Assembly: GCA_964632315.1 (NCBI GenBank)
Contig: CAZWEM010000015.1
Coordinates: forward strand, 20,521-84,520
Direction of reading: 5' to 3'
Length of the DNA stretch: 64,000 nucleotides
From: an uncultured archaeon
GTDB lineage: Archaea; Asgardarchaeota; Lokiarchaeia; Sigyniarchaeales; SOKP01
Shown piece after piece: positions 45,995-50,176 of the stretch (positions are counted from its first letter, which is position 1; every line of letters begins with the position of its first letter). Below the pieces are notes generated by a model, which ran no database searches, was not told the DNA's origin, and worked only from the letters and a program-made list of their open reading frames with translations. The translations under genes were made by a program, and so were the position numbers.

Positions 45995-47380
45995 TCAAGT
46001 TACGTCTTGTTTATTAATGGGAAATCGGGCATTAACTTTAATCAACCACTCATTTAATGTCCTGTTCAATAGATTTGCTCTTTCTGGTTCCTTAAGTGCA
46101 ATATTGTTTTTTTCGCTAATATCTTCTTTTAGATTATAAAGTTCTAAATGGCCATCCTCGTAAAATTTAATTAATTTATAATCATCGATTATAATTGATG
46201 ACCCTGGAGTACCCCCTTGATTTCCATAATGAGGAAAATGCCAATAAATTGAACCTCTCTTAAAATTTTCTTTAGCTTCGAGTATGGAAAAGAAACTTAC
46301 TCCATCACAATGTTGTTCAGGAATCAGAGATATGTCCGCCAAGTCTAAAATCGTTGGATAAAAATCCGGACTCGTAATAGGAGTATTTGATACCAATCCA
46401 GGTTTAACTTTTTGGGGCCAAACAATAATCAATGGCACTCTTGTTCCCCCTTCAAACATCCACCCCTTACCTTCCGATAACGGAGCATTACATGTTGGAG
46501 ATCCTTCTGCGGTAGATAGACCTCCATTATCAGAATAAAATATGATAATTGTTTCATCCTTTTTTCCAACACTTTCAACAGCTTTTATCAATCGCCCAAT
46601 ATTCTCATCAATTGAGAATATCATTGCTGCATACTTTGGATCTGACTGGATCACTCGCCTTTTAACTAAGTAATCTTTCTTATGAGTGCATGGAAACTTC
46701 TCACCAATTTCAAAAGGATTCACTTCCTTAAGTCCCATTTTTAACGCCTTCTTTCTAAAGTATTTAACATGCTCTCTTTTCGCTTGAATTGGAACGTGAA
46801 CGCTATAATACCATAAGTTAAGATAAAATGGTTTATCATCGCTGTTTAGGATCAACTTAATTGCTTCATCTGTAAGATGATCTGTAAGGTACTTTCTTTT
46901 TTCAGGGACTTCCTTAAGGGTTGGAATTCGCCACGGTGAGAAATAACCGTAAAACGGCAGCCCCCATTCGCAACCTCCAATATTTACTGAAAACCCATGC
47001 TTTTCTGGATAATATTCTTCTCCCCCTAAATGCCACTTCCCTACATGCCACGTAGAGTATCCATTTTCTTTCAAAACCGATGCCAAACTTTTTTCATCCA
47101 ATGAAAGATGATCAACATAGGATGGTTCAATGAGTTTCCCCTCTGTATCTCCCCCTATGAATTGTGTTAACCCCAAAGTAGCTGGATACTTGCCTGTAAG
47201 GATGCTAGCTCTCGTAGGAGAACATACTGGACAAGCAGCATACGCGTTAGTAAATCTCATCCCTTCTGAAGCTAATTTATCTAAATTCGGCGTTTCATAA
47301 AATGAACTTCCATAACAACTTAAATCCATCCATCCAAGATCGTCAATTAGAATGAATATAAAGTTTGGTTGCTTTTTCAT
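45995..47380 (-). CDS. Cys-type sulfatase (formylglycine-dependent)
   Basis: IDDLG, CSPTRASILTG, GKWHLG, SDNGG. Confidence 0.95.
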   Translation of the reverse strand: MKKQPNFIFILIDDLGWMDLSCYGSSFYETPNLDKLASEGMRFTNAYAACPVCSPTRASILTGKYPATLGLTQFIGGDTEGKLIEPSYVDHLSLDEKSLASVLKENGYSTWHVGKWHLGGEEYYPEKHGFSVNIGGCEWGLPFYGYFSPWRIPTLKEVPEKRKYLTDHLTDEAIKLILNSDDKPFYLNLWYYSVHVPIQAKREHVKYFRKKALKMGLKEVNPFEIGEKFPCTHKKDYLVKRRVIQSDPKYAAMIFSIDENIGRLIKAVESVGKKDETIIIFYSDNGGLSTAEGSPTCNAPLSEGKGWMFEGGTRVPLIIVWPQKVKPGLVSNTPITSPDFYPTILDLADISLIPEQHCDGVSFFSILEAKENFKRGSIYWHFPHYGNQGGTPGSSIIIDDYKLIKFYEDGHLELYNLKEDISEKNNIALKEPERANLLNRTLNEWLIKVNARFPINKQDVT

Positions 47381-47808
47381 AATTCTATTAAACTAACGGA
47401 TCATAAAATTTTTCATCTTTTTTTTGACTTTTTTACAAAAAATCACATCATTGATTTGGTGCATAATTATGAATTTCAACAATTCTGTATTTAACAAAAA
47501 TTGCTTTTTCTCTTAAAAATGCGACAATTTGCTCTAATATAATGCTCTATTGTATACCTATAACGGATTTGGAATTAATTTTTCTCCAAATGAATGTTTT
47601 GGTAAAATTTATGTAAGATGCACCAGATTGATCATTTACCTAGATCCGAATTTTGTCGTAAATTTTTTTCCCATTTTATCCTCTGAAATCATGGAGAGAT
47701 ACCAAAATCTTTAAATATAGAAAAGATATATATCTATGTAACTAAATCTCAATAAATAAATTATAGCATCAAAATTAATTAATAAATTAAAAGTGGAGGA
47801 ATGAAAAA

Positions 47809-48018
47809 ATGTCAGAATATATTAGTTGGAGTCCAATTAGGAGACTTATGAAACATAATGGCGCTATTATCGTTGCAAGAGATGCTGTTGACGAATTAGT
47901 TGATTGGATGGGACAATCAGCTGAAAAAATCACCAAAACAGCATTAAACTTGACAAAACACGCCAAGAGAAAGAAAGTCACCAAAGAAGACATCCAATTG
48001 GCAATCAAATACTTCTAA
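47809..48018 (+). CDS. Archaeal histone (HMf/HTk-type)
   Basis: PIRRLMK..GA..V..DA, HAKRKKVTKEDI histone-fold motifs; GGAGG SD; TTTAAATA box near 47710. Confidence 0.95.
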   Translation: MSEYISWSPIRRLMKHNGAIIVARDAVDELVDWMGQSAEKITKTALNLTKHAKRKKVTKEDIQLAIKYF

Positions 48019-48055
48019 ATATCGTGAAGATAGGTTTAAGAAGATTGCACTTTAA

Positions 48056-48071
48056 TTTTTTTCTTTTTTTT
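48056..48071 (+). terminator. Oligo-T terminator candidate for histone gene
   Basis: T-tract ~40 nt after stop. Confidence 0.5.
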
Positions 48072-48315
48072 AAATTAAATAATTGAGTATATAAAAAACT
48101 TGCACGACCTTAATTTATATCTACCACATTCCTTAAATTTTTAGCCAATTGAAAACCCACCGTGATTGATTTTTAGCATCGCTTTCTAAAATTTATTAAG
48201 AATCTCTGGTTCTCCAAGTCTCTATTCATGATTGTTTCAACACTATCTGCTTCTACAATCGAAATATGTACTATAATTTAGGTTTCACAAAATTGTAAAA
48301 AACTCAGCCTGGTTT

Positions 48316-48404
48316 AGAGAAAGAAAGTCACTAAAGAGGACATTTGATGTAACTTAAAAATTTTAGGACCCCCTAAGAGAAAGAAAGTCACCAAAGAAGA
48401 CATC
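48316..48404 (+). repeat. Two direct copies (48316-48344, 48375-48404) of histone-gene segment 47965-47994 separated by a 30-nt spacer
   Basis: Copy 2 is identical over 30 nt (AAGAGAAAGAAAGTCACCAAAGAAGACATC); copy 1 is 26/29. Confidence 0.92.
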
Positions 48405-48511
48405 AAATTCGTATTTATGAATATGAAATTTGTAGATTATTAACCATAAATTTTAATTTTAAGAAATATCAAACTAAATAAAAAATTCTTAAATATGCGT
48501 GATGAAAGAAT

Positions 48512-49135
48512 ATGGCTGGACTAACTTATAGTGTTGCTGAATTTAATACCATTATAACCATGTTGGGATGTTTATGTGCGACAGTTCAATCCTATAGTGG
48601 CATATATGCCGCGTATTATCGGAAAAGGACGGCTACTCTTAAAACAAATGATATTTTATTTCGGGCTCACAGAGCATTCGGTAGTTTTGCTACTACGCTT
48701 TATTTTTTAGGATTGTTCGCAGGTATGGTCGGATTTTTTGGAGGTATTTTCTTCAATAATCCTCCTTTTGAAGCCACAAGTCCTAGTTATAACATACACA
48801 CGTGGCCCAGCTTTGCTGTAATCGTCGTGATCGTTTGGAAGACGTATATTTCCTATTTCAAAAAACCCTCTGTTTATAGAAAGGGGAAATGGTTAGGAAT
48901 TGCAACTTTCATTGCTTGGTCATATACATGGATAACTGCAGCGACCTCTTATTATTTAAGAACGCTTCCATCCAATCCTCAACATGAACCACCCACTTAT
49001 TTATTACCTATTGAACTTTTTTGGCTTCAAATCTTGATTCCATTTATTGTAGGTTCAATAATTGGGTATTTTGTGTTAAGAAAAGCACATAAAATCGAAA
49101 AGAAGAAACAAGAAAAACTTGAGATTAATATATAG
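48512..49135 (+). CDS. Multi-pass membrane protein with conserved His residues (cytochrome b561-like)
   Basis: AHRAFG and NIHTW in TM helices; ~5 TM. Confidence 0.55.
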   Translation: MAGLTYSVAEFNTIITMLGCLCATVQSYSGIYAAYYRKRTATLKTNDILFRAHRAFGSFATTLYFLGLFAGMVGFFGGIFFNNPPFEATSPSYNIHTWPSFAVIVVIVWKTYISYFKKPSVYRKGKWLGIATFIAWSYTWITAATSYYLRTLPSNPQHEPPTYLLPIELFWLQILIPFIVGSIIGYFVLRKAHKIEKKKQEKLEINI

Positions 49136-49162
49136 TAAAAGTAAATATTTAGATGAAGGATA

Positions 49163-50176
49163 ATGAAAGAGGTATACCCTGGAATATTTCTTATAAATGA
49201 AAAGGGTTCTTTTGGTAATATAAAACCTTCAATAAATATTTACATATTCGCTGGAGAAGACGGTCTGATATTTGATGCAGGATTTGGAAATCGACGCGCT
49301 ATCAAACATTTTAAGGATGAATTCCATAAGATTAAATCACTGTATGAAAGTCAAGGACATGAATTAAATCTAACACGAATTATTCCGAGTCACTCTCATC
49401 CTGATCATTTCTCGGGTCTTAAGAAAATAAGAGAAGAATTGGGTGTAAGAGTAGTATTAACAAAAAAAACGGCAAGTATAATAAGTGACAAAAAGAGTTT
49501 CATGAACTCATTTAAAGCTGATAGCTATTCCGATTATCTGCTCGTAAAAAAAAGTTTAAGAAGTAAGATAAGGGACTTTATTGGAAATATTTTTACTCGT
49601 TTTCTCTATAAACGCATCTATGGTTTAGCTTATATTGATGATGCTGATGAAATTATAGATGATGATACAGAAATTTCCATCAACGGTGAAATCTGGAAGA
49701 TATTTCCTTCTACAGGGCATGCTATCGATCACATTTCCCTTTATAATGAAGATAAGGGAATATTATTAGGAGGGGATAATATACTTAAGTCAATAACTAC
49801 TTGGCTTGGTCCTCCAAATAGTGATATAGATGATTACATGAATACCATTAACTACATTCAAAAGCTGCCAAATTTGAATTTGATATTGCCAGCTCATGGA
49901 GATGTGATAACAAATCCAAAAGAGAGAATAAAGCAGGTTTTAGATCATCGAGAATCGAGGAGTGAACAAGTAATGGAAATAGTGAGGAATCATTCCAATG
50001 CAGGAGTTTCTCCCGATGAGATTATCGATGAACTTTATACTCATGAAAATGGAATGTTGAAAGAGATCGCTCGTGGCTGGGTCTGTTTAACGTTAAAAAT
50101 GTTCGAGGATCAAGGAGTCATTAGGCGAGAAGAAAGTGAGAAAGTGATAAAATTTTTTCCTATCAATAAACTATAA
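49163..50176 (+). CDS. Metallo-beta-lactamase fold hydrolase with C-terminal wHTH
   Basis: SHSHPDHFSG, GHAIDH, GGD, PAHG. Confidence 0.9.
   Translation: MKEVYPGIFLINEKGSFGNIKPSINIYIFAGEDGLIFDAGFGNRRAIKHFKDEFHKIKSLYESQGHELNLTRIIPSHSHPDHFSGLKKIREELGVRVVLTKKTASIISDKKSFMNSFKADSYSDYLLVKKSLRSKIRDFIGNIFTRFLYKRIYGLAYIDDADEIIDDDTEISINGEIWKIFPSTGHAIDHISLYNEDKGILLGGDNILKSITTWLGPPNSDIDDYMNTINYIQKLPNLNLILPAHGDVITNPKERIKQVLDHRESRSEQVMEIVRNHSNAGVSPDEIIDELYTHENGMLKEIARGWVCLTLKMFEDQGVIRREESEKVIKFFPINKL

Follow-up and report, generated by a model that had tools for sequence, protein, structure and literature searches.

We found that the intact archaeal histone gene in the 64,000-nt window (the whole stretch of DNA that was analysed) is followed by two short pieces of its own 3' region, one exact and one nearly so. 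We give a probability of about one half to the reading that these pieces are non-coding, non-functional relics or short patches, left by repeated rearrangement in a hypervariable slot behind the gene and kept gene-like by short-tract copying. The pieces are probably inert, and this account has no need of a dedicated enzyme. The window belongs to a Loki-type (Promethearchaeota) MAG of ~4.45 Mb that is 99.5% complete with a bin contamination of 8.6%. The features on which the argument depends are the following.

47809-48018, + strand: intact archaeal histone gene of 69 aa (open reading frame and Pfam), parent of the repeated segment
47965-47994, + strand: core segment, histone codons 53-62 (KRKKVTKEDI), source or partner of the copies (repeat search)
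~48046-48075, + strand: T-rich run 3' of the histone stop codon, likely the transcription terminator (from the sequence)
48077-48423, no strand: ~350 nt of lineage-specific DNA without a homolog in relatives (alignments with relatives)
48289-48309, + strand: possible decayed 5' continuation of copy 1, resembling histone codons 46-52, with 16 of 19 bases in agreement and an insertion of 6 nt (weak evidence, P=0.05)
48316-48344, + strand: copy 1, 29 nt, orphan of the core with 26 of 29 bases as in the gene (repeat search)
48345-48374, + strand: spacer of 30 nt, unique and unrelated to the other flanks (flank comparison)
48375-48404, + strand: copy 2, 30 nt, orphan without any difference from the core (repeat search)
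48424-48511, + strand: conserved upstream (promoter) region of the next gene, outside the repeat and forming the right edge of the rearranged stretch (alignment)
48512-49135, + strand: gene for a 207-aa membrane protein, the native neighbour, with weak likeness to cytochrome b561 and DUF4079 (open reading frame and domain search)

The histone gene matched PF00808 (Pfam search, E 1.9e-10), and orthologs with 80-97% amino acid identity were present at ~200 Promethearchaeota loci, which were taken from 42 genus genomes, 80 metagenome contigs and 80 species genomes. A repeat search confirmed the original prediction that the core recurs exactly as copy 2 and with three changes as copy 1, and none of 100 shuffles yielded two matches to the 30-mer. 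The three changes in copy 1 (ACC>ACT, GAA>GAG and ATC>ATT) are all transitions at third codon positions and, as had been claimed, all synonymous in the histone frame; the base just upstream (48315) is a T where the gene has an A, which creates an in-frame TAG ahead of copy 1, at codon 53. The predicted reading beyond the copies was also correct: in the histone frame a TGA follows directly after copy 1, and KFVFMNMKFVDY and then a stop codon follow directly after copy 2. With its flanks, copy 2 can be extended to 42 nt at 90% identity (47958-47999 versus 48368-48409). The start-to-start spacing is 350 nt and 60 nt. No start codon was found for copy 1 or copy 2 and neither is part of an ORF; both cover codons 53-62 only and lack the last seven codons and the stop of the gene. 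Their location past the T-rich run was borne out as well, and they lie between the histone terminator and the promoter of the next gene.

A search of the ~4.45-Mb genome with the 30-mer returned exactly three copies of the core, namely the gene, copy 1 and copy 2. In a genome scan for near-exact local repeats (at least 24 nt, within 2.5 kb, such that diverged relics would escape) the histone was the sole case in which a gene was echoed in intergenic DNA. A repeat of 30 nt is probably too short to cause misassembly with the usual assemblers.

The spacer between the copies proved to be unique, as predicted, and the flanks of the three copies are mutually unrelated, apart from the weak similarity at 48289-48309 (for which the P value was derived from a global alignment against shuffles). 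A 60-nt tandem duplication of copy plus spacer could therefore be ruled out. For copy 2 we found no comparable extension into flanks that resemble the parent gene. A decayed second histone copy between the gene and copy 1 was considered and rejected, as comparison of 48019-48315 with the histone upstream region, the 5' part of the histone gene and the spacer between the two histone genes of G057 revealed no significant similarity. In the 3' part of the spacer a 7-bp hairpin is predicted that extends into the first bases of copy 2 (48360-48379), the loop of which is unusually C-rich for such AT-rich DNA; this hairpin at the junction of spacer and copy 2 could mark the joining point of a repair patch.

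The comparison with relatives placed both copies in a stretch that is particular to this lineage. Homology of the window to relatives ends around 48022-48082, just past the histone terminator, and restarts around 48424, from where the region up to 48511 could be aligned with nine relatives (z=8.2 in a local alignment). Copy 2 ends ~20 nt before this restart and thus sits at the edge of the lineage-specific rearrangement. Orthologs of the 207-aa membrane protein were found in 23 of the 41 genus genomes, and in G016, G057 and G006 these are located near the histone gene. In the close relatives G016, G057, L112, L122 and L127 a gene encoding a 350-aa oxidoreductase separates the histone gene from the membrane-protein gene; the present genome lacks this gene, and 48077-48423 occupies its place and holds both copies. 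Inspection by eye of L127:3798-4850 and L019:188-1246 led us to assume that the missing gene encodes a fusion protein of a molybdenum-oxidoreductase domain and a cytochrome-b-like membrane domain. Elsewhere in the genome (G000:C29:50196-50726) we observed a 353-aa protein of which the C-terminal part resembles the 207-aa membrane protein.

A further finding was that the slot behind the histone gene is hypervariable throughout the collection, containing tandem duplicates, bare histone fragments, and accessory genes ahead of orphan 3' ends. The first ORFs 3' of the gene fell into 118 different clusters in the ~200 loci. Full-length tandem duplicates of the histone gene were found in G011, G049, G057, L111, L123/124, L127, L138, L168 and L196. 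A second histone paralog (with the tail KIAINLI) is tandemly duplicated in relatives too (L177:1274-2253, on G008:C40, and G023:C99:33745-34061), so that duplication appears as a habit of several histone loci in the genus.

Orphan histone fragments were encountered in several relatives, and two of these carry additional genes between the intact gene and the orphan. Two contigs share the G053 locus, which is broken exactly at the core: one has the upstream region and the full gene, and the other has an orphan that runs from codon 55/56 to the stop and continues into the native downstream flank, which is 85% identical to the flank behind the intact gene of G055. The insert between gene and orphan, ~1.6 kb long when the contig gap is bridged by homology to G054, contains a MarR-like gene and a gene for a 180-aa protein; a search of the G053 bin with the contig ends did not recover the missing part. 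G054 has the same pair of genes together at another place, and six other genomes have it in varied contexts. Directly 5' of the MarR-like gene in G054 (L084:8730-8830, on contig C55) we noted three operator-like tandem repeats of 27 nt. Similarly, in L196 the histone gene is followed by a CPBP-like gene and then by an orphan that extends from codon 31 to the stop and includes 65 nt of a shared terminator region.

Other orphans have no cargo of this kind. The orphan in L139 (codon 56 to stop) is 73% identical to the resident gene, its changes are each of a kind found in working alleles, and on its 5' side lies a piece with homology to the upstream region of the L148 histone gene; judged from these sequences it would be a trimmed tandem copy. 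A comparison of these two loci also revealed that the whole histone cassette has the opposite orientation within its flanks (L139:9385-11344 versus L148:8594-9310), and that the flanks are ~90% identical and the histone genes only ~80%. In G001 and G023 a clean insert of 33 nt holds the core, and the sequences that flank it are contiguous in L138, which has no insert, showing that short histone patches do get inserted by themselves. Behind the tandem histone pair of L127 there is an orphan consisting of codons 51-62 and scraps of the tail, and a decayed version of it occupies the same place in G057/L124. Its position and a short upstream motif suggest that copy 1 is the counterpart of the L127 and G057 orphans, with a flank alignment that was not significant (z=0.1). 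Two further candidate orphans were rejected as chance matches, the one in L176 because it is located inside another gene and the one in L207 because the region appeared, by eye, to be coding on the opposite strand.

Where orphans and genes differ, the differences resemble those between functional alleles. Third codon positions account for three of the four differences between copy 1 and the gene, for all six between copy 1 and the L127 orphan, and for all five between the gene and the orphan of G053. In L196, gene and orphan differ by 13 base changes and no amino acid changes over codons 52-70. Codons 31-51 are nearly identical, and three of the four changed codons there are non-synonymous. 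Such a third-position pattern is not expected from random decay, and it implies genes under selection as the source from which the orphans were copied. Copy 1 is identical to the alleles of two relatives at 28 of 30 positions and to its own gene at 26 of 30; together with the three synonymous differences this upholds the original claim that copy 1 came from a functional histone allele and not from random decay. Glu60, which is lineage-specific, is nevertheless common to copy 1 and its own gene. The orphan of G023 is identical to its own gene at only 20 of 30 positions. The gene-like sequence of the orphans would have come from another allele, from repeated conversion, or from both. The histone of the window reads EDIQ at residues 60-63 (47986-47999), and the other alleles that were viewed by eye in tblastn listings read DDIL, NDIL or GDIL there, with D, N or G as residue 60 and L as residue 63. 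By this comparison, the histone gene in the window may itself have had its end replaced, or that end may be evolving in an unusual way.

In the explanation that we prefer, partial copies would arise by duplication of the histone gene, or incoming DNA would bring a histone end of its own, and later deletions would trim the partial copies and remove the cargo. The expressed gene nearby would keep the short core gene-like, or supply it anew, as donor in short-tract gene conversion or as template in repair, with conversion over only 30 nt as an assumed step. The origin of the fragments may then differ between loci: a trimmed tandem duplicate in L139, an incoming end with cargo in G053 and L196, and a short patch alone in G001/G023. 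In the window the cargo would be gone and two patches comprising only the core would be left, copy 1 as the older and copy 2 as the younger one. This account resembles what is known of gene-converted tandem families in that tandem histones are common, the L139 orphan keeps an upstream piece and the orphans track functional alleles. It differs from such families in that the flanks of copies 1 and 2 hold no convincing remains of a second gene, and that the edges of the fragments repeatedly fall at the same codons.

These recurrent edges deserve separate attention. The 5' edges or switch points of copy 1, copy 2 and the fragments of G023, L127, G053, L139 and L196 are located at codons 51-56 (six or seven cases), and the 3' edges of copy 1, copy 2, G023 and L127 at codon 62; taken overall, 5' edges occur from codon 31 up to codon 56. 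We rejected recombination at the longest stretch of identity as the cause of this cluster, because nucleotide conservation in the gene peaks not in the core but at codons 4-9 and 29-34, and plain homologous recombination or random deletion thus does not predict the edges. An edge as sharp as that of copy 2, with its 30/30 identity against unrelated flanks, is less typical of decay than of a copied patch or a site-specific core. The recurrence of the edges could be due to a site-specific enzyme or to a fragile site formed by a purine run, and their clustering at codons 51-56 and 62 keeps such an enzyme in consideration.

On this basis one could tentatively propose a less probable, stronger reading, in which an undescribed type of gene capture in Asgard archaea, working without an integrase, would have its site of cleavage or crossover in codons 53-62. 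Conserved gene ends would serve as landing pads at which a recoded end arrives with its cargo and the old core is left behind, and two such rounds would have left copies 1 and 2 as emptied slots. Whichever reading applies, the slot is a place of repeated gene gain, loss and exchange behind a core chromatin gene in Loki-type Asgard archaea, and no recombinase was found for it. If a specific enzyme or an effect of DNA structure were responsible, this would be a manner of building small gene islands that has not yet been described for archaeal chromosomes, and it would bear on the uptake of foreign genes by Asgard genomes. If there is no such enzyme, the locus still illustrates clearly how short patches are copied between a gene and its relics. 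In the literature we found no report of histone-gene fragments or of histone-targeted insertion in archaea; aloposons have been described to integrate at tRNA sites (PMC8813620). There is no tRNA gene in the window.

The recurrent edges also keep alive two readings that invoke a known type of enzyme, both of which lack the defining gene. In the first, which we consider unlikely, a homing nuclease cuts the histone core and repair copies in a recoded, uncuttable end together with cargo, by which the old end is pushed downstream and successive rounds stack up relics. This is how WHO elements and the mobile ORFs of fungal mitochondria behave, with a conserved gene that receives a recoded replacement end and old ends that pile up downstream; the WHO homing elements reportedly reside at FBA1 in Torulaspora and Lachancea yeasts. 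The likeness lies in the recoded replacement end combined with a displaced old end, as seen in L196, where the switch to silent changes starts exactly at the core, in G053 with its exclusively third-position differences, and in the third-position changes of copy 1. The clustering of junctions at the core, even though this is not the most conserved stretch, fits a nuclease as well. Unlike in the yeast and mitochondrial cases, however, no endonuclease gene lies beside the histone loci examined and the arrays are very small, consisting of one or two relics. The search, which covered LAGLIDADG, GIY-YIG and a Pfam scan of ten ORFs, revealed no LAGLIDADG motif in any ORF of the ~200 histone loci or the window, no match to LAGLIDADG_3 on any histone contig of the genus, no relatives of the genome's small GIY-YIG proteins in the histone loci, and no nuclease domain in the ten first-slot ORFs without known identity, apart from one that was YaeQ-like. 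Moreover, copies 1 and 2 do not have the gene tail that would be expected of displaced ends.

The second enzyme-based reading, quite unlikely in our judgement, is a fuller form of the att-scar option in the original prediction: an element with a tyrosine or serine integrase would use the 30-nt core in the 3' region of the histone gene and bring a replacement gene end, and the copies would be attR-type remnants of elements lost afterwards, comparable to CIMEs. Prophage e14, which resides in icd of Escherichia coli, leaves an icdC pseudogene in this manner, fragments of tRNA genes are found at the ends of islands, and remnants that are devoid of genes are known as CIMEs. As in the e14/icd type of gene-end duplication, the window has an intact gene followed by direct-oriented partial 3' copies with synonymous differences, and in G053 and L196 the succession of regenerated gene, cargo and displaced gene end corresponds to the classic layout. 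The direct repeats with a sharp-edged identical core and the edges that cluster at codons 51-56 agree with it too. The option thus has support in a general sense only, by virtue of the cargo between full gene and orphan end in these two relatives; no integrase, bounded element or attP-like second copy was found anywhere that was searched. The 42 genus genomes contain essentially one XerA-like tyrosine recombinase each (PF00589) and none of the histone contigs in these genomes has a PF00589 match; neither an integrase nor the integrase-bearing islands bounded by the 30-mer that had been suggested were present near the ~200 histone loci. The genome contains no further core, and exact-pattern scans of IMG/VR, metagenome and genome contigs (which may not include the genome that the window belongs to) returned no free core or histone tail. 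The cargo in G053 and L196 consists of one or two ordinary genes and no recombinase, the 5' edges are spread over codons 31-56, and the window itself differs from the e14/icd type in having no cargo (its repeats bracket just 320 and 30 nt, both gene-free) and in having copies that are limited to codons 53-62. By eye the core has no dyad symmetry, and a Xer/dif-like site was judged unlikely since inverted arms are absent. On a short contig of the genome (G000:C116:257-2603, L259) we observed a split tyrosine-recombinase frame beside the gene of a small GIY-YIG protein, which may represent a mobile element or contamination.

The original prediction had also offered cassettes for the swapping of histone C-termini; this idea found no support, as beyond codon 62 no full-length relative has an alternative tail. 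It is very improbable that the copies belong to a functional RNA or regulatory element, be it a transcript of the repeat-spacer-repeat type or an RNA that pairs with histone mRNAs as antisense or decoy. The 30-30-30 geometry would fit such an element, as would copies that remain gene-like while their flanks diverge. Against it, there was no Rfam match in 47000-49500 with E up to 1, and predicted folding was ordinary on both strands (z-scores of -1.28 and -0.25 relative to shuffles). The geometry of promoter and terminator is inconsistent across relatives, the position of the copies between the terminator of one gene and the promoter of the next argues against it as well, and in relatives the orphans decay, as is clear from G057 and from the low identity of the G023 orphan to its own gene. 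CRISPR mini-arrays share with the window the 30-nt direct repeats and the unique 30-nt spacer, and differ from it in that the repeat here is a piece of a protein-coding gene, that there are two units only, and that no Cas1 was found in the 99.5%-complete genome and no array-like structure in the local-repeat scan. Off-target spacer integration of the CRISPR type, by which a pre-existing 30-nt orphan would have been duplicated around a new 30-nt insert, is scarcely credible, for although the duplicate is repeat-sized and the insert spacer-sized, Cas1 and assembled arrays are lacking, the copies differ at four positions and it is the downstream one that equals the gene.

The geometry of repeat, spacer and repeat may serve as a warning against reading such a layout as a system. 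The DNA lengths usually quoted for the archaeal histone dimer and tetramer are 30 and 60 nt, and these are also the size of the copies and the period at which they recur, which is probably a coincidence.
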